Both the position numbers and the translations under genes were made by a program. Shown piece after piece: positions 2,455 to 50,950 of a stretch of 64,000 bases of DNA. The notes beneath the pieces are model-generated. The model had not been told where the DNA came from, ran no database searches, and was given only the letters and a program-made list of their open reading frames with translations. Numbering within the stretch: position 1 is the stretch's first letter; each line of letters opens with the position of its first letter. Source of the stretch: a virus; UHGV virus genome UHGV-0332176; one strand, 5' to 3'.

Positions 2455-3744
2455 ATGAAAACAAATAAAGCAATTAAAAAAGACCCAGTATATACTTATG
2501 AAGGTGGTAAAGCATCTCATATTTCTGAATTAGAAGAACTTAAAAGAGCAACAATGTCTTGTTTGCTTTGGGAAGATAATTTCTATGAAGATGGAGTATC
2601 TATTGCAGATAGAATTACCTCATTAGTTAAGGCTTGTATAGATAAAGGTCATTATGATGATGTTATTGATATTTTAAAGAAAGTTAAATTTGATATGAAA
2701 ATTCGTCATTGTCCTTTATGGATGATTGTTGCAATTTATAAAGCTGGTAAAACAATTTCTAAAGATGTTATTGCATCTATCTTAACAAGACCTGATGATA
2801 TGGGTGAATTGCTATCTTTATATAGAAAAGATAATGAAAAATCTCCTATTCCAAATGCTATTAAGAAAGGTATGGCTATTGCATTACAAAAATTTGATGA
2901 ATATCAATTAGCAAAATGGAATCGTAATGCAAATTATAAATTAGTTGATATTGTTAATATTTGCCATCCAAAGGTAACTGAAGCTATTGATAAATTAGTT
3001 AAAGGTACTTTAGAAACTCCTAAAACTTGGGAAGTTTTACTTTCAGCAGCAGGTTCAGATAAAGAAAAGAAAAAAGATGCTTGGAATGAATTAATTGAAT
3101 CTAATAAATTACCAGATATGGCTTTATTAAAGAATATTCGTGGTATGCTAGAAAGCGGTGTATCAAAAACTGTTATTGTTGATAGAATTAATATGATTAA
3201 AAGTGGTCGTTTACTACCAATTGATTATATTAGAGCTGCAGAAAATAATCCATCTTTAGAAAATGAAATTGAAAAGAAATTTCTAAATTGCTTTGAAAAA
3301 CCATCATTATACGGTAAAACTGCAATTCTTGTAGATGTTTCAGGTTCAATGGATGGTGAACGCTTAAAATATGCAAATGCATTGGCAATGATTGGACGTG
3401 AAATGTGCTCAGAAGTTGATATATATTCATTCTCTGATTATGTTAAATTTGTACCAAATCGTAGAGGTTTTGCATTAGCAGAAGCTATTGATAAATCTCA
3501 AACTCATTGGGGAACTAATATGTGGGATGCTATTACTGAAGTTGAAAAAGGACGTTATGATAGAATTATTGTTGTAACTGATGAACAAACTATGGGTAGT
3601 CCTCATAATGCTAAAATTAAAAATGCATATATGATTAATGTGGCATCTTATTCAAAAGGTGTTGGATATAACAATGGTTATAAACACATTAATGGTTTTT
3701 CAGATAAAGTATTCAATTACATTTCTGAAATTGAAAATGTATAA
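2455..3744 (+). CDS. Ro60/Rsr-like protein with TROVE-like N-terminal region and C-terminal vWA domain (MIDAS DVSGSM)
   Basis: 429 aa. vWA motif ILVDVSGSMDG plus later SFSD / TDEQ elements. The alpha-helical repeat-like N-terminal two-thirds is consistent with TROVE. It follows the tRNA-like RNA module array. Confidence 0.6.
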   Translation: MKTNKAIKKDPVYTYEGGKASHISELEELKRATMSCLLWEDNFYEDGVSIADRITSLVKACIDKGHYDDVIDILKKVKFDMKIRHCPLWMIVAIYKAGKTISKDVIASILTRPDDMGELLSLYRKDNEKSPIPNAIKKGMAIALQKFDEYQLAKWNRNANYKLVDIVNICHPKVTEAIDKLVKGTLETPKTWEVLLSAAGSDKEKKKDAWNELIESNKLPDMALLKNIRGMLESGVSKTVIVDRINMIKSGRLLPIDYIRAAENNPSLENEIEKKFLNCFEKPSLYGKTAILVDVSGSMDGERLKYANALAMIGREMCSEVDIYSFSDYVKFVPNRRGFALAEAIDKSQTHWGTNMWDAITEVEKGRYDRIIVVTDEQTMGSPHNAKIKNAYMINVASYSKGVGYNNGYKHINGFSDKVFNYISEIENV

Positions 3745-5743: not shown

Positions 5744-5832
5744 GAATGGTGGATGTAGTCAAGTTGGTCGAAGACGTTAGATTGTGGCTCTAATACATAA
5801 GAAACATCGTGGGTTCAAATCCCACCATTCAC
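5744..5832 (+). tRNA. tRNA, class II with long variable arm; isotype not resolved by hand-folding (anticodon-loop candidate ttGTGgc)
   Basis: Acceptor gaatggt/accattc, T arm gtggg-ttcaaat-cccac, variable arm of about 15 nt. The anticodon stem ttaga/tctaa found by hand is ambiguous. Confidence 0.5.
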
Positions 5833-5925
5833 CCACCTCAATAATGCAATAACCTTTACGAGGTTTGAGGTATAAGTAATTCAATAGTTGGATGAAACTA
5901 ATAATTGCAAAATATTGAAAAATTT

Positions 5926-6002
5926 GGCTCGTTAGGCGAATTGGCATAGCCGTCTGTCTTAGGTACAGAAGTTTGGGGGTTCGAGTCCCTCACGAGCTAC
6001 CA
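5926..6002 (+). tRNA. tRNA with anticodon UAG as hand-folded (a Leu anticodon but class I shape); encoded CCA
   Basis: Acceptor ggctcgt/acgagct, anticodon stem tctgt/acaga with loop ctTAGgt, T arm ggggg-ttcgagt-ccctc, ACCA end. Confidence 0.55.
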
Positions 6003-6006
6003 ATAT

Positions 6007-6083
6007 GGGCAGATGACGGAATTGGTATACGTGCTACACTCAAAATGTAGATTTTGTGAGTTCAAATCTCACTCTGCCTACCA
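6007..6083 (+). tRNA. tRNA with anticodon CAA as hand-folded (class I shape); encoded CCA
   Basis: Acceptor gggcaga/tctgcct, anticodon stem ctaca/tgtag with loop ctCAAaa, T arm gtgag-ttcaaat-ctcac, ACCA end. Confidence 0.55.
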
Positions 6084-8778: not shown

Positions 8779-8948
8779 TGACAAAATATAAATGTATATA
8801 TGGTTTTACAGAAAAAATAATTGAAGCATCTGATGAAGATGAAGCCAGAGATGAATTTGCATATAATTTTATTGAAAATGAAGATGAAATAAATGATTTT
8901 TTATTACAAGATATAAAATTTTGTACAAAAGTTGAGGAATGCGAATAA
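8778..8948 (+). CDS. small acidic hypothetical protein, not in the ORF track
   Basis: ATG at 8778 overlaps the upstream stop (ATGA) and the frame is open to TAA at 8946-8948; 56 aa. Confidence 0.3.
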   Translation: MTKYKCIYGFTEKIIEASDEDEARDEFAYNFIENEDEINDFLLQDIKFCTKVEECE

Positions 8949-9424
8949 TGTATAAATGGGAAATGAATATTATTAATGATTTTAATAATGAAAAATATAA
9001 ATGGTTATCTAATTTTTATCCTTCAAAATTTATTGCTAATGGTAAGGAATTTTGTAGTGTTGAACAATATTACCAATATGAAAAAGCAATAGAATTTAAT
9101 GATTTTGAAACTGCTGATAAAATTCTTAATACTTCTTCACCAGGTAAAGCTAAATCATTAGGTCGAGATGTTAAAAATTTTGATGATTTAGTATGGAATA
9201 AGTATAAAATTAATATAATGAAAGATGGATTATATGCTAAATTTACACAAAATTCTGAATTATATAATTTATTATTATCAACAGGTTCTTCTATAATAAT
9301 TGAAGGTAATCTATGGCAAGATACTTTTTGGGGTGTTGTAAATGGTGAAGGGCAGAATAATTTAGGATTACTATTAATGTTATTGAGAAATGAATTAAGA
9401 ATGTTAAAGGAAAATGAATGTTAA
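8939..9424 (+). CDS. NADAR (YbiA/DUF1768) domain protein
   Basis: Pattern WLSNFYPS...FCSVEQYYQYEKA...GRDV..F....W......M..YAKFTQN.ELYNLLLSTG...IIEGN..D..WG.G..G.G.N.LG.LLM.LR. Confidence 0.65.
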   Translation: MRIMYKWEMNIINDFNNEKYKWLSNFYPSKFIANGKEFCSVEQYYQYEKAIEFNDFETADKILNTSSPGKAKSLGRDVKNFDDLVWNKYKINIMKDGLYAKFTQNSELYNLLLSTGSSIIIEGNLWQDTFWGVVNGEGQNNLGLLLMLLRNELRMLKENEC

Positions 9425-11045: not shown

Positions 11046-11278
11046 TGAATTACTTAAATATTAAAATGCCTTATCCAATGCCAGATGATTATAATATAGA
11101 ATTGGAAATTGGTGATTATATTGTTAAAGATAAAAATGGTGAATTCTTTATTGATAGTTGGGTAGATAATATAATGGGATTTTATTGTTGGGAATTGGAT
11201 GCCTTATCAGAAATCGTATGTAAATTACCTTCTTGTGAAGAATTACTTAAAATTTTGGAGAAAGAATATGCAGAATAA
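11045..11278 (+). CDS. hypothetical protein
   Basis: ORF. Confidence 0.4.
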   Translation: MNYLNIKMPYPMPDDYNIELEIGDYIVKDKNGEFFIDSWVDNIMGFYCWELDALSEIVCKLPSCEELLKILEKEYAE

Positions 11279-11717
11279 AATTTTAGATGAATATAAAAAA
11301 GCTGTCAAAGAAAATGATTTTTGGAGAAAGAAAGTTTTAACTACTTTACGCTCTGAAATTAAAAATATGGAAATTATGCTTCGTCCAAAAAATTTAACAC
11401 CAACTGATGCAGATATTCTTTGTGTTATTCAAAAAATTATTAAACAAGATAAAGAAGCACTTGGTATGTTTATTGAAAGTGGACGACAAGATTTGATTGA
11501 TGCAACTAATACTGAAATTACAATTCTTGAAGAATTTTTACCAACACAATTAACAAATGATGAAATTGATAATATCATCAAACAAGAAATTGAAAATAAT
11601 AGCTATTCATCAATGAAAGATATGGGCAAATTGATGGGATATTTTAAGAATAATTATTCTGGTCAATGTGATATGGGATATGTATCTAAGAAAATTAAGG
11701 AGATGTTAAATGGATAA
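11268..11717 (+). CDS. GatB/YqeY domain protein
   Basis: Motifs LRSEIKN, KQDKEALGMFIESGRQDLIDATNTEITILEEFLP and MGKLMGYFKNNYSGQCDMGYVSKKIKEML match the YqeY pattern. Start taken at ATG 11268. Confidence 0.6.
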   Translation: MQNKILDEYKKAVKENDFWRKKVLTTLRSEIKNMEIMLRPKNLTPTDADILCVIQKIIKQDKEALGMFIESGRQDLIDATNTEITILEEFLPTQLTNDEIDNIIKQEIENNSYSSMKDMGKLMGYFKNNYSGQCDMGYVSKKIKEMLNG

Positions 11718-13789: not shown

Positions 13790-14332
13790 ATGGAAGAATG
13801 GAAAGATATAAAAGGATATGAAGGTTTATATTTAATTAGTAGTTATGGTCGTTGTAAAACAACAAATTTTAGACCTGGTTATGGTCGTATACCAGAAAGT
13901 TCAGAATGTATTTTAAAAATTGAAAATCCTGATTATCATCAAGGATATGCTCTTGTATCATTATCTAAAAATGGAAAAAAGAAAAAATTTAGAATACATA
14001 GATTAGTTGCTGAAGCATTTATTCCAAATCCTAATAATTATCCGTGTGTTAATCATATTGATGGAAACAAATTAAATAATAATGTTAATAATTTAGAATG
14101 GTGTACAGAAAAGCAGAATATGGAACACGCTGCTAAATTTAATTTAGTTAATCGTGGAAAACGGCAATATGTTAAACAATTAACATTAGATGGTAAATTA
14201 ATAAAAATTCATAAATCAATCAGAGAAGCATCTCGTGAAACAAATATTTGTAGAGATTCTATTACTAAATGTTTAAAAGGTAAGCAAAAACAATGTGGTA
14301 ATTTTAAATGGGAATATGTAGAAAATAAATAA
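13790..14332 (+). CDS. HNH homing endonuclease with an N-terminal NUMOD4 motif
   Basis: WKDIKGYEGLYLISSYGR (NUMOD4) and VNHIDGNKLNNNVNNLEWCTEKQN (HNH_3). Confidence 0.7.
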   Translation: MEEWKDIKGYEGLYLISSYGRCKTTNFRPGYGRIPESSECILKIENPDYHQGYALVSLSKNGKKKKFRIHRLVAEAFIPNPNNYPCVNHIDGNKLNNNVNNLEWCTEKQNMEHAAKFNLVNRGKRQYVKQLTLDGKLIKIHKSIREASRETNICRDSITKCLKGKQKQCGNFKWEYVENK

Positions 14333-25288: not shown

Positions 25289-26155
25289 ATGAATTGTAAA
25301 CCTGTTTATGAATTTTTATTATGGGATAATTGTAATAATCATTGTAAATTTTGCTGGCAACGAGAAAATCCTCGCTTATTTAATAAATCTCAACGAGAAA
25401 TCATTTTAAATAATGTAATTAAATTTATTAATAGTAATAAATTTAAAAAAGATAGTCATATTCTCATTGTTGGCGGAGAAATTTTTGATAATCCATCTGA
25501 TTTTGAATTATTAGATACATTTTTTTGCCAAATACTTGAATTTATGATTAATGGAACAATTGATTTATTATATATCAATACAAATCTAATATATAAAGAT
25601 TTAACAGGTATTATTCGTTTAATTAAACGAATAGAAACATTAAATTTATTTGATAGATTAAGATTTACAACATCCTTTGATATAGAAGGAAGATTTAAAT
25701 CAGAAGATGATAAACAATTAATGTTATCTAATTTAAAACTTTTAACAGGAATTTATGATAAATTGCAAGTTGTTACAAATATCATTTTAACTAAACCTAT
25801 GTGTCAAGCAATTATTAATGATAAATTTAGTGTTGGACAATTTATGAAAAAATATAAATGCTGGGTTAATCTAATTCCATATATTGTTTTAGATAATAAT
25901 TTAACAGCGGATAGAGAAGAAATATTTTCAACATTACAAAAAGTTGATGAAGAAAATAATGGTTATTTACAAAAATATATTACAAATTTAGATTTAGCAC
26001 AAGATAAGTTATTATATATGTATAAAGATAATAAATTTCAATTTTGTAGTTGTGAAAATTCTGAATGTGGACATTCAATAAACTTTAAGAAATATTCAGA
26101 TACTAATGATTGTTATATTTGTGATTTAAAGGAATTATTCAATGGAAAAATTTAA
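25289..26155 (+). CDS. radical SAM family protein (paralogue 1) with CNNHCKFC, GGE motif and a C-terminal CGH...CxxC cluster
   Basis: CxxxCxxC at residues 15-22, IVGGEIF, C-terminal CGHSINFKKYSDTNDCYICD. Confidence 0.65.
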   Translation: MNCKPVYEFLLWDNCNNHCKFCWQRENPRLFNKSQREIILNNVIKFINSNKFKKDSHILIVGGEIFDNPSDFELLDTFFCQILEFMINGTIDLLYINTNLIYKDLTGIIRLIKRIETLNLFDRLRFTTSFDIEGRFKSEDDKQLMLSNLKLLTGIYDKLQVVTNIILTKPMCQAIINDKFSVGQFMKKYKCWVNLIPYIVLDNNLTADREEIFSTLQKVDEENNGYLQKYITNLDLAQDKLLYMYKDNKFQFCSCENSECGHSINFKKYSDTNDCYICDLKELFNGKI

Positions 26156-38034: not shown

Positions 38035-38559
38035 ATGAATGATATTAGTAAAATTAAGAGTAATAGAATTGATGATGGAATAAAACCTGGTGATTTATGT
38101 TATTCATTAAGAACAGAAAAAGAAGGATGGTTATTATGTGATGGAACAAGTTATTCAACAACTGATTATCCTGATTTATTTACTGTAATTGGTTATACAT
38201 TTGGTGGAAGTAATTCTCAATTTAATGTGCCTAATTGTTCTGGTAAATTTTTACAAATGGATACATCTAAAACCATAGGACAAAATATTGAAGCTGGTCT
38301 TCCAAATATTGATATGAGTGCATCATTTTATTTAATAGAAGCTCACGGTAGATTTATTGGCTTATCTAATAATACAGGTTCAGTATATGGTGAAGATGCA
38401 GGTGCAATAGAAAATGCTAATGGTGGTGGTGATGTTGGCAGTAATGCTCCAAGAAAAATTCATATAAATGGTAATTTAAATTCATATAATACAATTTATG
38501 GTAATTCAAACACAGTACAACCACCAGCTATAATTGTTAACTATTTTATCAAATATTAA
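38035..38559 (+). CDS. phage tail-collar domain protein
   Basis: LCDGTSYSTTDYPDLFTVIGYTFGG collar signature. About 120 nt are near-identical to 45821-46336. Confidence 0.65.
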   Translation: MNDISKIKSNRIDDGIKPGDLCYSLRTEKEGWLLCDGTSYSTTDYPDLFTVIGYTFGGSNSQFNVPNCSGKFLQMDTSKTIGQNIEAGLPNIDMSASFYLIEAHGRFIGLSNNTGSVYGEDAGAIENANGGGDVGSNAPRKIHINGNLNSYNTIYGNSNTVQPPAIIVNYFIKY

Positions 38560-45820: not shown

Positions 45821-46336
45821 ATGGCATTATATCTCGGAAGTAATGAAGTTTCTCAAAAAGTTTTATTATTAGGTGGAAATAAAAGTGATATAGAAGTTGG
45901 TGATTTATGTTATTCATTAAGAACAGAAAAAGAAGGATGGTTATTATGTGATGGAGCAAGTTATTCAACAACTGATTATCCTGACTTATTTGCTGTAATT
46001 GGTTATACTTTTGGTGGTTCAGAAAATAATTTTAACGTTCCAAATTATAAAGGTAAATTTCTTCAAATGATTAATGATAATCAAACAATAGGTCAAAATA
46101 TTGAAGCTGGTTTGCCTAATATTACAGGTAATTTTAGTGCATATAATAATGCTGGTATAGATACTGCTAATGGGTCATTTTATTTATCTAATGCACAACA
46201 TATAAACTATGCTGGTAGGTCAGAAAGAGATACATATCTTTGTAATTTTGATGTATCTCGTTCTTCTTCAATATATGGAAAATCAAATACAGTACAACCA
46301 CCTGCTTCTATTGTTAATTATTTTATCAAATATTAG
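45821..46336 (+). CDS. phage tail-collar domain protein, paralogue of 38035-38559
   Basis: LCDGASYSTTDYPDLFAVIGYTFGG; C-terminus NTVQPPASIVNYFIKY nearly identical to 38035. Confidence 0.65.
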   Translation: MALYLGSNEVSQKVLLLGGNKSDIEVGDLCYSLRTEKEGWLLCDGASYSTTDYPDLFAVIGYTFGGSENNFNVPNYKGKFLQMINDNQTIGQNIEAGLPNITGNFSAYNNAGIDTANGSFYLSNAQHINYAGRSERDTYLCNFDVSRSSSIYGKSNTVQPPASIVNYFIKY

Positions 46337-46422
46337 CGACAAATAACGATGACACACAATTTATTAGTAATTTCAATAACTTATTTCATTTTTCGGTTAT
46401 TAAACAAATAATAATGACATAA

Positions 46423-46767
46423 AAACAAAGCTCCCAAATGGGAGCTTAACTTATTTATGTATTATTTCAGTCGCAGTCATTTCTGTTGCAAGGATAACTG
46501 TTTCCCCACTAAACATAAAAGCATTCATCCGTTAGGATTAAGCAGCAATTACATTATAGTTATAGTTAACGTTTTCGTTAGCATTCATTTTATTTTGAAC
46601 CGATATTGGTGGTATCTCGCCAGGTACATTATAGCCATTTTCAATAATGTTCAAAATTCCGTCCGCCCCTAATACATTGATTTTTCATAATATTTTCCTG
46701 GTGGAGCGGCTGGGAGTTAAACCCAGGTCACTATCATTTACTTTGGGATAATTTATCAGCACCATTC
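46423..46767 (-). ncRNA. ssrA: circularly permuted two-piece tmRNA precursor: acceptor piece, then about 29 nt of intervening sequence, then coding piece
   Basis: Minus strand. The acceptor piece ends with T arm ctggg-tttaact-cccag, 3' acceptor ccgctcc and ACCA (to 46699). The coding piece begins with GGGGCGG at 46669, which pairs with ccgctcc through a G3.U70 wobble. Tag ORF 46581-46537 reads GCT AAC GAA AAC GTT AAC TAT AAC TAT AAT GTA ATT GCT GCT TAA (ANENVNYNYNVIAA*). The terminator hairpin gctcccatttgggagc plus T-run ends at 46423. Confidence 0.75.
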
Positions 46768-46774
46768 AAAATTA

Positions 46775-46803
46775 TTTATAAATTATTTTATTTTAATTGT
46801 CAA
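46775..46803 (-). promoter_or_regulatory. sigma70-like promoter for the tmRNA gene
   Basis: On the minus strand: TTGACA (plus coordinates 46803-46798), 17-nt spacer, TATAAA (46780-46775). Confidence 0.5.
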
Positions 46804-46864
46804 TAAAATAATTTAGGACATAAATACAGTTATAAGCAATTCACAAATTTAATAAAGGATTATA

Positions 46865-47668
46865 ATGATATATTATGTTTATCAAATAACAAATAAAATT
46901 AATAATAAAATTTACATTGGAAAAAGAAAATATAAAGGAGAAAATCCTTTATTAGATTCATATATGGGGTCAGGAAAATTAATTAAAGAAGCAATTAAAA
47001 AATATGGAAAAAATAATTTTCAAAAAAATATTATTCAAAGTTTTGATAATGAAAATGATGCTTTTAAATTAGAAAAAGAACTTGTAACAAAAGAATTCTG
47101 TAACAGAAAAGATACTTATAATATTCACGAAGGTGGTACAGGAAGTTTTTCTCACATTAATAATAAACCAATTGAAAAAAGAGAAAATATTATAGCTGTT
47201 AGAAAATTATTAAATTCAGGAGTAAAATTTGGTGGAAAAAAATATTTTACAGAAGAAACTTATCAAAAAATTAGTAATTTTAATAAAGAACGATGGAAAA
47301 CTTGGAAAGAAAAACCAGAATTAATGCCAGATTTTTATATAAAACCTCGTACAGAAAAATTTAAACAACATTTATCAGAAATTTTTAAAGGTCAAAATAA
47401 TCCTAATTTTGGTAAACATTGGTATATTCATAAAAAAGCTATTAATATTAATGAAAAGAAAATGTTTTTTGATAATGAAATACCACAAGGTTTTATTACA
47501 GTAAAAGAATGGAAAGATTTACATAAAAATAAGAAAAATAAAGCATATGGAAAACATTGGTATAATGATGGTAAACAAAATTATTTTTTATCCCCAGATG
47601 ATGAAAAAATTAAAATATTAAGTAAAGGGCGTATTGGTACTCTTTTTAAAAAAATTGAAAGTAATTAG
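46865..47668 (+). CDS. GIY-YIG homing endonuclease with NUMOD-like repeats
   Basis: IYYVYQITNKINNKIYIGK (GIY..YIG). FTEETYQKISNFNKERW and NPNFGKHWY / AYGKHWY repeats. Confidence 0.7.
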   Translation: MIYYVYQITNKINNKIYIGKRKYKGENPLLDSYMGSGKLIKEAIKKYGKNNFQKNIIQSFDNENDAFKLEKELVTKEFCNRKDTYNIHEGGTGSFSHINNKPIEKRENIIAVRKLLNSGVKFGGKKYFTEETYQKISNFNKERWKTWKEKPELMPDFYIKPRTEKFKQHLSEIFKGQNNPNFGKHWYIHKKAININEKKMFFDNEIPQGFITVKEWKDLHKNKKNKAYGKHWYNDGKQNYFLSPDDEKIKILSKGRIGTLFKKIESN

Positions 47669-47707
47669 AAAAAGATTTATATTAAATTTTAATGGTTCAA
47701 AGTTTAT

Positions 47708-47822
47708 TCGTTTTGCAAGCTGGTGGTAATTGGAATGATTCATCTAACTACGGAGTTGGTTCTCGTAATAGTAACAATTCTCGTGCTAATTTGAACGACA
47801 ATAACTCGGTGCGAGGGCTTGA
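47708..47822 (+). repeat. DGR template repeat (TR)
   Basis: Translates to ...AGGNWNDSSNYGVGSRNSNNSRANLNDNNSVRGL; AAC/AAT-rich. It matches the VR at 49401-49515 (minus strand) except at TR adenines. Confidence 0.85.
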
Positions 47823-47948
47823 TATAATCTCTTTTTTGAGCATTAGCTGAATTTTGAACCTTGTCTTAATAGGCTAAACATCAAAATTGTAAAAATAATA
47901 TTAGTAAAAGAATTTGAAAATATTATTTTTCAATTAGAGTAAAAATAA

Positions 47949-49298
47949 ATGAAAAGAATTAATAATTTATGGGAAGAATTTACTTCACAAGAACATTGGT
48001 TTGAAGCAAGAAAAAGAGCTTTACGAGGTAAAGTTAAAAAATATTGTGTCAAAGCTATTATGAGAAAAGGTGACGAATATTTAGAAAAAATTCGTCAAGA
48101 TGTTATTAATGGTACTTTTGAATTTAAGGGTTATAAAGAACATACTATTTATGAACCTAAAGAACGTAAAATATTTGTAGCAAGAATTGAAGAAAGAATT
48201 TATCATTGGGCATCAATGATGATTACTGAAAGAATTTTTGAACCAACATTTATATTTGATAGCTATTGTTGCCGTAAAAATAAAGGACAACATAAATGTT
48301 CAGATAAATGCAAAGAAATTGTTAAACATAATAATTATTGTTTAAAATTAGATATTTCTAAATTTTATCCAAATATTAATCATAAAATATTAAAAGAGTG
48401 TTTAGCAAGAAAAATTAAAGATATAAGATTTCTCAATGCTTTATACGCAATTATTGATAGTCATAATAAGGATACTGGAAAAGGTATTCCAATTGGTAAT
48501 TATTCTTCTCAAATTTTTGGAAATATTTATATGACTAAATTAGATATGTTTGTTAAGCACACTTTAAAATGCAAACATTATTTAAGATATTGTGATGATT
48601 TTTGTTTATTTTCAAATGATAAAAAGTATTTAAATTGGTGCAAAGAAAAAATTATTGAATTTGTTACTAATGAATTAGATATGAAATTAAGCAAATGTGA
48701 TTTATTTAAAACTAAACAAGGTGTTGATTTTGTTGGATATAGACATTTTCCTCAATATACTTTAGTTAGAAAAAGAACTGCTAAAAAAGTTAAAAAGAGA
48801 ATGTTAAAAATTCAATATAAATTAAAAAATTATGAATTAACTCAAAAAGAATTATTTAGAATGAATGGGCAAGTTGCCAGCTCATATGGTTGGTGTAAAC
48901 ACGCTGATTCTTATAGATTTATGAAAAAATATAAAATTGAAGAATGTTTAAAGGAGATTATAATGAGATATGCAGAATTTAAAAACAAATTACATACAAA
49001 TAAAATGTTATCAATGAAAATTAATGATTTTATTAATAAAGAAATAACAATAACAGGTTGGGAATATTATAAAAAGAATGATAATAATGAAGATGATAAA
49101 AATAAAGAAGCAGTTAAAACTGTTAAAATACATTTAATATATAATGGTGAAGAAAAAATTATTATAACTAAAGCATCGGTTATTATCAGAGATTTAGAAG
49201 AAATTTCACAATTAGAAAAAGAAGAAAATACAAAGATATTTCCCTTTGATGCAACATTAAAGAAAGATACTAAACGAAATTATTTTTATTTTGAATAA
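47949..49298 (+). CDS. diversity-generating retroelement reverse transcriptase
   Basis: RT motifs: EPKERKIFVA (motif 2), LKLDISKFYPNINH (motif A), GIPIGNYSSQIFGNIY (the DGR-specific IGxxxSQ form of motif B), YLRYCDDFCLF (YxDD). It has a C-terminal extension of about 110 aa. Confidence 0.85.
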   Translation: MKRINNLWEEFTSQEHWFEARKRALRGKVKKYCVKAIMRKGDEYLEKIRQDVINGTFEFKGYKEHTIYEPKERKIFVARIEERIYHWASMMITERIFEPTFIFDSYCCRKNKGQHKCSDKCKEIVKHNNYCLKLDISKFYPNINHKILKECLARKIKDIRFLNALYAIIDSHNKDTGKGIPIGNYSSQIFGNIYMTKLDMFVKHTLKCKHYLRYCDDFCLFSNDKKYLNWCKEKIIEFVTNELDMKLSKCDLFKTKQGVDFVGYRHFPQYTLVRKRTAKKVKKRMLKIQYKLKNYELTQKELFRMNGQVASSYGWCKHADSYRFMKKYKIEECLKEIIMRYAEFKNKLHTNKMLSMKINDFINKEITITGWEYYKKNDNNEDDKNKEAVKTVKIHLIYNGEEKIIITKASVIIRDLEEISQLEKEENTKIFPFDATLKKDTKRNYFYFE

Positions 49299-49372
49299 AG
49301 ACGGGCATCGCAAGGCTGCCCTGTCGTTTGCTATATGACCGCACAAGGCGGTCTAAAAAGAAAAGGATTTGA

Positions 49373-49395
49373 GTTTTACTCAAATCCCTTAGCAT
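49373..49395. promoter_or_regulatory. 9-bp stem hairpin ggatttgag-tttta-ctcaaatcc immediately 3' of the VR on the target strand; candidate DGR target-recognition hairpin and terminator. Two more GC-rich hairpins sit at 49309-49333 and 49346-49360.
   Basis: Seen directly. It lies between the convergent RT and target genes. Confidence 0.45.
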
Positions 49396-50455
49396 TAGCA
49401 GCAAGCCCCCGCACCGAGCTACCGTCGCTCAAAGTAGCACGAGAAGCGTTACAATCACGAGAACCAACCCCGCAGATAGATGAACCATCCCAAGTACCAC
49501 CAGCCCGCAAAACGAAACCTTCACCGTAAAAAGAACCTTTACCCATATCAGTATTAATAACAGTCCAACCACTTCCACCAGATGCACCAGTTGAATTTAA
49601 ATATTGCCATAAAGCACCGCAACAATCTTCTATACCATAAACAGAAATCATTCTTCTACCAGCAGTATCTACGTGTCCACCAGTTGTTACTGGGTCAGCA
49701 GCACCAGAAATAGCAGTTCCTTGATTAGAACCAAATGCATATGCAGTAAATTCATTATCATTAGCTAAATGTTTACCAACTGAAAATAAATCTTCTACGT
49801 GATTTTGATAATAACGAGTATCAGTAATTGTTGCACCAAAAACTGATTTGGTATTTAATCCAGTTCCTGATTGTAAATAAATATCACACCATTTATCAAT
49901 TACATCAATATATGCCATTCCATCAACATCAGCAAATCGTGGACGAAATGAGATACAAGATATTGAATTTGGTAATATATCGCCAGCATTATATCCAGAT
50001 AATAAATGTCCAGAAATTGTTCCAACATTAGCACATACAGTATGGAATGAAGATAACCATTGAGTATTAGATGTTGTATATCCTGTTGGAGCATCTGAAT
50101 TTAATGAACAAATTAATTCTTTATCAGAAGTAATATAAATGTAATAAGTTTTTCCAGCTTGTAAAGATGTTCCAGTATCTAAAATAGAAACGGGATTAAT
50201 TTCTTTGGCTTCATAATTTTCATAATTAACTAATTCATTATTAAAAACTAAAGGTATATTACAAGGTTCAAGAATAATTGTTGTTTTATCAAAACAATTA
50301 GTTTTACCTTCTCTAAATAATTGAGTATAAGATTTACCTTTAATTGTATTATCTAATTCTTTAATATGAACAAAACGAAATGTAGGAGCAAATCCGCCTA
50401 ATAATGTTTGTAATCCATATATACGATTAATTTGAACTTTTGAAATATCTATCAT
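49376..50455 (-). CDS. DGR target protein (C-type-lectin-fold variable protein), likely a receptor-binding protein
   Basis: The C-terminus ...GEGFVLRAGGTWDGSSICGVGSRDCNASRATLSDGSSVRGLAANAKGFE* is encoded by the VR. Confidence 0.8.
   Translation of the reverse strand: MIDISKVQINRIYGLQTLLGGFAPTFRFVHIKELDNTIKGKSYTQLFREGKTNCFDKTTIILEPCNIPLVFNNELVNYENYEAKEINPVSILDTGTSLQAGKTYYIYITSDKELICSLNSDAPTGYTTSNTQWLSSFHTVCANVGTISGHLLSGYNAGDILPNSISCISFRPRFADVDGMAYIDVIDKWCDIYLQSGTGLNTKSVFGATITDTRYYQNHVEDLFSVGKHLANDNEFTAYAFGSNQGTAISGAADPVTTGGHVDTAGRRMISVYGIEDCCGALWQYLNSTGASGGSGWTVINTDMGKGSFYGEGFVLRAGGTWDGSSICGVGSRDCNASRATLSDGSSVRGLAANAKGFE
49401..49515 (-). repeat. DGR variable repeat (VR) at the 3' end of the target gene
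   Basis: About 103 nt align with the reverse complement of the TR and mismatch only at TR-adenine positions (about 23 substitutions). The 3' end GGGGGCTTG (VR) versus GAGGGCTTG (TR) corresponds to the IMH region. Confidence 0.85.
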
Positions 50456-50551
50456 TGTAATACCTTTTATTTATATTTAATATTTATTAAATAAAAAACC
50501 CACCAATATTTTTAATTAGTGGGTAATATTTGGAGATAATAACAATATATT

Positions 50552-50950
50552 TTAATTTTCAATTAATTCAACAGTTTGTTTTCCTAATTCTATAATCATT
50601 GAATTAACAATTTTTTCTTCATTTTCACAATCATATGTTGGATGAGAACCATTAGCATCATAATATTTAATATTACATACAAATTCTTCTAAATCTTCAG
50701 AAGGTAATGCACTTTCATAAATTTCATCAGTTCTTTTATCCCTAATATAAATGGTTAATATATATTCATCTAAATGAGCTTCAACAATTTCAAAATCTTT
50801 TGTAAGTTTTTTTGGAAATACTTGTTCAACACCATTTACGGATTTAATTTCCGTTGGTTTATCATTAATTAAAAACCAACTAACACAAGAAATCAAAAAT
50901 GCAATTAATACCACTAAACCAAATTCTTGAAATTTTTTAATAACTTTCAT
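50552..50950 (-). CDS. membrane-anchored hypothetical protein with an N-terminal transmembrane segment
   Basis: VVLIAFLISCVSWFLI. Confidence 0.5.
   Translation of the reverse strand: MKVIKKFQEFGLVVLIAFLISCVSWFLINDKPTEIKSVNGVEQVFPKKLTKDFEIVEAHLDEYILTIYIRDKRTDEIYESALPSEDLEEFVCNIKYYDANGSHPTYDCENEEKIVNSMIIELGKQTVELIEN

Follow-up and report, generated by a model that had tools for sequence, protein, structure and literature searches.

A reverse transcriptase with a fused accessory domain in an Avd-less diversity-generating retroelement of a jumbo gut phage

How does a diversity-generating retroelement (DGR) that lacks Avd carry out its reverse transcription? Avd occurs in about 74% of DGRs and is not universal. 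The question is raised by a locus of UHGV virus genome UHGV-0332176, from which we analyzed a stretch of 64,000 nucleotides (hereafter, the window). The locus combines a template repeat (TR), a reverse transcriptase (RT) and, on the opposite strand, a target gene with a variable repeat (VR). Our results make it very likely that this DGR is intact and recently active, that it lacks Avd and that the ligand-binding surface which it diversifies is C-terminal in an Mtd-like tail protein. How reverse transcription proceeds in the roughly one quarter of known DGRs without Avd has not been settled (Wu et al. 2018, PMC5758913), and the locus offers a concrete and testable answer.

The first-pass annotation of the window had described a complete DGR whose VR departs from the TR only at adenines. 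An ungapped alignment of the plus strand against the reverse complement matched TR and VR over 117 nt without gaps (coordinates in Table 1) and revealed 19 mismatches, all 19 of them on TR adenines. These numbers replace the earlier estimates of about 103 aligned nt, about 23 mismatches and a TR at 47708-47822; the adenine pattern itself is just as it had been described. The probability that 19 of 19 mismatches would fall on adenine at random is 1.6e-14 (hypergeometric). The TR contains 30 adenines, and the 19 that are changed in the VR comprise 13 A>G, 4 A>C and 2 A>T substitutions, most of which affect codon position 1 or 2 of AAT, AAC, GAT and similar codons. The VR represents 39 codons near the end of the minus-strand target open reading frame (ORF). 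Both repeats have G+C-rich 3' ends that differ at two adenines only (GCGAGGGCTTGAT vs GCGGGGGCTTGCT), and the homology ends right after CTTG. A scan of the entire window identified no further TR-like copies and no additional VRs.

The RT presents the properties of the DGR clade. Its motif 4 (IPIGNYSSQ) corresponds to [I/V/L]GxxxSQ and its YxDD box reads YCDD, in agreement with the motifs reported by the first-pass annotation, and DGR RTs are its closest relatives. In a search of PDB sequences, the nearest solved relative was bRT of Bordetella phage (8ub7, E=1.9e-36, aa 2-288), and the matches to group II intron and retron RTs were far weaker (E 1e-15 or weaker). The protein also matches the PHROG 1423 reverse transcriptase (E=1.8e-101). 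A block of tail-fibre and collar genes ends with the target, whose matches include the Pfam Mtd second domain (E=1.3e-10), the Mtd structures 2iou/1yu0 in the PDB (E=7e-17, aa 95-330) and the PHROG 11262 tail protein (E=1e-42). Since the homology to Mtd runs through its C-terminal domain, the C-terminus of the target probably adopts a C-type-lectin (CLec) fold. The combination of a bRT-like RT and an Mtd-like target indicates an element of the BPP-1 type, directed at a receptor-binding protein.

Natural variation provides evidence that this element has been at work. The phage is ~287 kb long, has a G+C content of 25% and comes from the human gut; the longest contigs with the exact RT/target proteins measure 285-290 kb, which makes it a jumbo phage. 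The NCBI copies of these proteins are third-party annotation (TPA) entries of human-gut viromes, named only 'hypothetical protein' and 'major tropism determinant'. Fifty-five contigs carry the exact RT, compared to 6 with the exact target. The cluster of the target at 90% identity contains 400 members, which differ almost only at A-templated codons. When 15 members of this cluster were aligned, 17 of the 19 VR codons with a TR adenine were variable, with up to 10 different residues per site, against one of the 20 adenine-free VR codons. The two A-bearing codons that do not vary have adenine solely as a synonymous third base. Among the 320 columns that lie outside the VR, 20 were variable, with two states each. 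The comparison across related genomes that the first-pass annotation had called for thus places VR variation at adenine-templated positions, and its description of a complete DGR holds: the core parts are all present and intact, and the population data display adenine-templated VR codons being rewritten.

Across the RT, the window shares 97% identity with two sister contigs, L003 and L004, each of which breaks off within the VR, as is expected of a heterogeneous region. Compared to the VR of the window, that of L003 presents 18 differences (16 on TR adenines) and that of L004 presents 13 (12 on TR adenines), and their TRs are nearly invariant. The sole non-A difference shared by the two VRs is a C, at a position where their own TR has a T>C change. 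Such a match is direct evidence for a transfer of information from TR to VR within each lineage.

These observations bear on whether the DGR could be a relic, with old TR/VR differences and a target that is no longer mutagenized in this genome. Such a relic would be consistent with the skewed substitution spectrum (13 of 19 are A>G) and with three members of the RT cluster, P0138, P0140 and P0147, which lie on contigs of 156-287 kb (near-full-length genomes) and have N-terminally truncated or internally deleted RTs. The latter suggest that the DGR is inactivated in part of the population, or that these sequences contain assembly errors. In the window, however, the RT ORF is intact and has kept its catalytic motifs. 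The smaller number of contigs with the exact target (6) than with the exact RT (55), the 400-member cluster that varies almost only at A-templated codons and the sister contigs that break inside the VR also argue against a relic, which we consider improbable relative to an intact and recently active DGR.

Table 1. Coordinates, strands and identifying properties of the DGR components and of other features of the window
Feature	Position	Strand	Properties
Template repeat (TR)	47707-47823	+	117-nt ungapped match to VR, mismatches all at TR adenines
Variable repeat (VR)	49400-49516	-	Codons ~314-352 of the 359-codon target; G+C-rich 3' end CTCGGTGCGGGGGCTTG
RT ORF, 449 aa	47949-49298	+	Pfam RVT_1; motifs IPIGNYSSQ, RYCDDF
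RT core, aa 1-338	47949-48962	+	Pfam RVT_1; bRT 8ub7; PHROG 1423
Fused accessory domain, aa 339-449, 111 aa	48963-49298	+	Begins at in-frame ATG; homologous to the 97-aa gene of L001
Mtd-like tail protein (target), 359 aa	49376-50455	-	Pfam Mtd second domain; PDB Mtd; PHROG 11262
Promoter-like site, TTGAAA-17-TATATT	47655-47683	+	Putative start near 47690
5' arm of TR-enclosing duplex, GGTTCAAAGTTTA	47694-47706	+	Pairs over 13 bp with 47848-47860; abuts 5' side of TR
Hairpin 1 (TAATCTC / GAG-C-ATTA)	47825-47845	+	Directly after TR, before conserved GCUG
3' arm of TR-enclosing duplex, TGAATTTTGAACC	47848-47860	+	13 nt after conserved GCUG
RT-proximal hairpin	47889-47932	+	Stem of 12 bp; between its strands, invariant UAGUA and GAA on either side of a small inner hairpin
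Two G+C-rich hairpins	49300-49325, 49337-49353		Between convergent RT and target stop codons; read from sequence and folded
13-bp hairpin	49362-49390	-	Target stop codon in loop, T-run after; conserved in L015
GIY-YIG/NUMOD3 homing endonuclease	46865-47668	+	Adjoins the DGR, not part of it
Permuted (two-piece) tmRNA	46469-46807	-	Rfam tmRNA_permuted 87.5 bits (gathering 47), alpha_tmRNA 77.4 bits (gathering 50)
TROVE (Ro60-like) domain ORF	2455-3744	+	E=1.9e-15
Second free-standing homing endonuclease	13790-14332	+	HNH_3 + NUMOD4 + NUMOD1 type
Paralogous tail-collar-domain genes	38035-38559, 45821-46336	+	DNA ~86% identical in parts
NADAR domain gene	8939-9424		
YqeY-like gene	11199-11717		
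Radical-SAM protein gene	25289-26155		

The first-pass annotation had remarked on two further traits, the absence of an Avd gene near the RT and a C-terminal extension of the RT of about 110 aa. Both are confirmed, and they represent one feature: the extension is a conserved accessory module that is encoded by a separate gene in most relatives. There is no Avd-sized ORF in the cassette (46336-50552), and none of the 48 small ORFs (75-200 aa) of the window, which covers 64 kb of the ~287-kb genome, matches the Avd Pfam family. The extension itself begins at an in-frame ATG that is preceded at the usual spacing by AAGGAG (48951-48956), so that the tail of the RT looks like a fused downstream gene. 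It is kept in RTs that are 56-98% identical to that of the window, and the next-closest RTs (~60%) are only 340 aa long. In L001, an RT of this ~340-aa type is followed by an overlapping gene whose 97-aa product and the extension are homologues (31% identity, E=9e-9). The extension alone retrieved only fragments of its own cluster from a word-indexed protein database. An exhaustive search with a profile of eight fused versions matched 871 clusters at 50% identity, almost all of them stand-alone proteins of 94-105 aa and a few of them fused to RTs of 420-507 aa. In every informative genomic context that we looked up, the small gene overlaps the 3' end of the RT gene.

We then surveyed 80 viral contigs encoding RTs 40-61% identical to that of the window, using a hidden Markov model (HMM) built from stand-alone members only. 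The module was located directly downstream of the RT in 54 loci, overlapped the RT end in ~15 and was fused in 2, i.e., it was adjacent to, overlapping or fused with the RT in ~71 of the 80 loci. It was upstream in 2 and undetected in 6. The gap from VR to TR, with a median of 96 nt, is too short to accommodate an avd gene: it measures less than 300 nt in 47 of the 52 distinct relatives compared.

The module has no Pfam, NCBIfam or PHROG annotation, and a profile search of all PDB sequences identified no relative. An AlphaFold model of aa 339-449 (pLDDT 88.5) displays the topology b1-b2-b3-helix-b4-b5. The best structural matches were SSB/RPA-type OB folds, all of them weak; Foldseek found nothing significant in the PDB, and its top match in BFVD was another RT-domain protein. 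OB folds consist of a five-stranded beta-barrel in which a helix stands between strands 3 and 4. With moderate confidence, the predicted domain, a beta-barrel plus a helix, may be called OB-like, and its resemblance to ssDNA-binding OB folds is weak. This model bears on whether the extension could be an Avd that has diverged strongly. The fold of Avd, which belongs to the 23S rRNA-IVP/Avd family, is a four-helix bundle (PDB 4DWL). The module resembles Avd in its size (~100-110 aa), its mildly basic charge (the stand-alone family has a median pI of 8.7) and its location in the DGR cassette. Its predicted structure, however, consists mainly of beta strands with one long helix, and its gene follows the RT instead of preceding the TR. 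In addition to the missing family annotations, the PDB profile search returned no Avd even at E up to 10. A diverged Avd is extremely unlikely on these grounds.

Alternatively, the C-terminal domain might be unrelated to the function of the DGR: a neighboring phage gene, e.g., one that is SSB-like, could have been fused by chance, and the RT and host factors would suffice. The cofactor role of the domain is deduced from its conserved linkage and by analogy, and six of the 80 relatives have no detectable module. It was also reported that 29% of DGRs have no accessory gene and that ~20% of RTs have unexplained C-terminal extensions (Wu et al. 2018, PMC5758913), both of which are compatible with a chance fusion. 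Nevertheless, the module adjoins the RT in loci with only 40-60% RT identity whose neighbors are otherwise different, and the overlap of its start with the RT stop points to translational coupling. Moreover, fusions are observed in several separate lineages (the clade of the window; P0014/P0022/P0066/P0040; L042; hankyphage), and the top BFVD match also contains an RT domain. We therefore judge a chance fusion unlikely. By analogy with Avd, the fused 111-aa domain is most likely a nucleic-acid-binding cofactor that replaces Avd in this lineage. The median pI of 8.7 in the stand-alone family is indirect evidence that it might bind single-stranded DNA or RNA.

The RNA of the element also appears to be structured. 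Just ahead of the 5' arm, a promoter-like site of sigma-70 type presents 10 of 12 consensus matches, a result that is not significant by scanning alone in AT-rich DNA. Its -35/-10 pair and their spacing are kept in L003 and L015 despite differing DNA between the hexamers, and L006 has TTGACA-16-TATATT at the equivalent place. Comparison of the spacers of four lineages revealed a common plan: the TR, GAUA, hairpin 1, GCUG, a variable segment and a hairpin before the RT start. Hairpins of differing sequence occupy the place of hairpin 1 in L006, L005 and L001. The arms that would enclose the TR in a duplex have equivalents in L006 and L001 that pair despite their unrelated sequences. In a test anchored on GCUG, 27 of 34 distinct loci showed pairing of at least 11 contiguous bp between the arm and the sequence upstream of their own TR, compared to 3.4% for mismatched loci.

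The RT-proximal hairpin has a stem of 10-13 bp across lineages, and all 15 of its pairs show compensatory changes among 16 aligned instances. A covariance model built from these 16 seeds yielded 65 matches (E up to 0.1) in 685 kb of sequence, 49 of them outside the seed. All 65 directly precede an RT start or, in L002/L005, adjoin the inverted TR, and the model had no match elsewhere in the 685 kb. These position-specific matches are independent evidence for the hairpin. Across 46 distinct hairpin sequences, 89% of cells were paired, as compared to 53% in shuffles and 38-52% for slid partners.

These elements suggest the following mechanism. The promoter would drive an RNA composed of the 5' arm, the TR, the structured spacer and the RT mRNA. 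In this transcript, the 5' arm would pair with the spacer and enclose the TR, and hairpin 1 and the UAGUA/GAA hairpin might dock protein, like the Avd-binding and bRT-binding stem-loops in BPP-1. The RT would then make a cDNA, with errors at adenines, and this cDNA would replace the VR in trans; with replacement in trans, a target on the opposite strand would pose no problem. More broadly, the ~100-aa module may be the missing cofactor of a large Avd-less DGR lineage, taking over the role of Avd in positioning template-primer RNA and probably binding the stem-loop that follows the TR; the module, the UAGUA/GAA hairpin and the TR-enclosing duplex would jointly characterize a DGR ribonucleoprotein of a distinct type. 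We regard this broader proposal as evenly balanced between being right and being wrong. Several observations weigh against our interpretation. The hairpin seeds were picked with a descriptor that requires a stem, which by itself produces part of the covariation within the seed. A clear distinction between the initiation of mutagenic homing (IMH) site at the VR 3' end and its IMH* counterpart in the TR is missing; the 3' ends of TR and VR differ at adenines only. The truncated RT genes in some genomes of the phage imply that not every copy is active, and the HMM detects no module in six of the 80 related loci.

The position of the target and its VR downstream of the RT on the opposite strand had been pointed out as unusual by the first-pass annotation, and it is indeed so among relatives. 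The convergent order, in which TR and RT are followed by the inverted target, is common to L003/L004, L015 (~90% RT identity) and L006/L007 (56% RT identity). We detected 64 TR/VR pairs among 79 more distant viral loci, and every one of them follows the canonical order, in which the VR lies upstream and the strand is the same. Only the small clade of the window, with its fused RT, thus presents the inverted TR/VR geometry. This arrangement fits a cDNA that acts in trans, and components on different strands have been reported in a minority of DGRs (Wu et al. 2018, PMC5758913).

Other layouts were also observed. In L005 (61% RT identity), the target lies upstream on the RT strand, and the TR and spacer are inverted downstream of the RT. 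The TR and structured spacer are on the strand opposite to the fused RT in both L005 (1727-1820, minus strand) and L002 (1482-1533, minus strand), with the VR upstream on the RT strand, so that the template RNA and the RT mRNA must be separate transcripts there. Recombination between inverted TR and VR was ruled out as the origin of the L005 layout: the spacer stays with the TR, and an inversion would move it with the RT. Finally, L017, which has a stand-alone accessory gene, contains three repeats (29-98, 199-268 and 2091-2160), i.e., one TR and two VRs; one of the VRs lies upstream and the other in a 175-aa gene downstream of the accessory gene.

Several hairpins are located between the VR and the end of the RT gene. 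A 9-bp hairpin had been annotated immediately 3' of the VR; a hairpin is indeed present, and it has 13 pairs and starts 12 nt past the VR. A hairpin/cruciform downstream of the VR is typical of DGRs, and this one is indistinguishable from a plain terminator. From its sequence, it looks like the intrinsic terminator of the target gene, and it may be the DGR hairpin/cruciform element as well. The distance from VR to hairpin varies among relatives (12, ~30 and ~46 nt), and the hairpins there differ too. The two other hairpins are conspicuous against DNA of 25% G+C; the one nearer to the target recurs in L015, as does the adjacent terminator-like hairpin.

A GIY-YIG endonuclease directly upstream of the TR had also been annotated, and we recovered it with a NUMOD3 score of 23.7 (Pfam cut-off 20.4) and a SegE_GIY-YIG score of 24.4 bits, just below its cut-off of 25, in addition to a sub-threshold match to 'group I intron endonuclease'. 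Its DNA is ~72% identical over 165 nt to segH-type genes of T4-like phages. It is possible that this endonuclease is a working part of the DGR that, e.g., nicks the target or the template, because it is immediately upstream of the TR and its stop codon falls inside the -35 to -10 interval of the proposed promoter. However, the region from 46624 to ~47670 is replaced by ~260 unrelated nt in L003, L004 and L015, both flanks of which align with the window and whose RT regions are 86-97% identical to it in DNA. These loci retain the TR, the RT and a diversified VR, and the endonuclease is also absent from all the other related DGR loci that we examined. The gene resembles the free-standing seg-type homing endonucleases of T4, and the exact protein is found on 411 contigs, far more than the RT. 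We see next to no likelihood of a role in the DGR. The absence of the gene from close relatives indicates a mobile insertion, and its sequence identifies it as a probable free-standing homing endonuclease whose presence is polymorphic between related genomes.

The left junction of this insertion falls inside the gene of a permuted transfer-messenger RNA (tmRNA) (46624 to ~47670 in the window; 1311-1575 in L003; 4465-4719 in L015). The tmRNA, which was not reported by ARAGORN, has a tag reading frame that ends in ...NVIAA* and is also present in L003 (1164-1557). The half of the tmRNA that flanks the endonuclease is diverged from the alleles without endonuclease, and the other half is near-identical. 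This divergence looks like a co-conversion tract, in which case homing may be directed at the tmRNA gene or at its flank.

Elsewhere in the window, a TROVE-domain gene is found within a cluster of phage tRNA genes (933-2306, 5749-6083). One of the two paralogous tail-collar-domain genes stands beside the block formed by the tmRNA and the DGR. A second free-standing homing endonuclease and auxiliary genes typical of large phages (NADAR domain, YqeY-like and radical-SAM protein) were also identified (Table 1).

The locus is of interest for several reasons. A candidate cofactor with relatives in 871 clusters at 50% identity is here in one polypeptide with the RT, and the covarying RNA is defined and open to mutation and reconstitution. 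The fusion of RT and putative cofactor and the compact RNA of ~260 nt might be of use in DGR-based tools for targeted mutagenesis. For phage biology, the locus provides an example of an active diversifier of a receptor-binding protein in a jumbo gut phage.

Among known systems, the DGR of Bordetella phage BPP-1 (mtd-avd-TR-brt) has the closest solved RT homologue and a target homologous to that of the window. In its RNA, solved by cryo-EM, the TR is directly followed by a stem-loop that binds Avd, sequences on either side of the TR form a 'cPRT Stop' duplex, and the 3' end of the spacer holds a long stem-loop that binds bRT (10.1101/2023.10.23.563531). The layout of the window is parallel, with a stem-loop right after the TR, a TR-flanking duplex and a long stem-loop before the RT gene. 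Hairpin 1 thus parallels the Avd-binding stem-loop as its putative positional counterpart, and the TR-enclosing duplex would be analogous in position to the 'cPRT Stop' duplex. In contrast to BPP-1, the window lacks Avd, has an RT with a beta-rich domain of 111 aa, presents its target on the opposite strand downstream of the RT and shows no clear IMH/IMH* difference. The RNA motifs UAGUA/GAA and GCUG are specific to the clade of the window.

The absence of an avd gene and the TR-RT core are shared with Architecture A, or 'lineage 3' of Wu et al. (2018, PMC5758913), to which crAssphage LMMB's DGR has been assigned. The LMMB RT is 34.5% identical to that of the window and has an extension of its own of ~90 aa. 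Our HMM did not detect the module in the RT extensions of crAss-like phages (E=2.9), and the model of the UAGUA hairpin had no match in crAss-like loci. In full-text searches of the literature (DGRs with OB folds, alternative or novel accessory proteins), whose coverage is incomplete, we found no description of the ~100-aa module. The same module is fused to RTs of the Bacteroides hankyphage type (E=1.2e-11 with the stand-alone HMM), in what is an independent fusion. The hankyphage DGR is reported to be active in culture (PMC12135933) and has no Avd-sized ORF between target and RT; the 'Avd' first described for it had been proposed solely because of its pI and size (PMC6199706). Hankyphage differs from the window by its canonical target-TR-RT order on one strand, by an RT that is only 25% identical and by the lack of a match to the UAGUA hairpin model.

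Finally, the Rfam families RT-14 and RT-10 (Weinberg et al. 2017) are likewise structured RNAs beside RT genes. The RT-14 model aligned in full length across the TR end and the spacer of the window with 36.6 bits (37.8 bits for L003), below its gathering score of 48.1, and none of 20 related loci reached the Rfam gathering scores. Its consensus presents the same succession of stem, UAGUA, hairpin, GAA and stem as the window, and the RT-10 RNA sits between TR and brt in BPP-1. Set beside these systems, the locus is a genuine DGR that belongs to a poorly described variant, which is abundant, lacks Avd and has a conserved accessory domain and an RNA architecture of its own.

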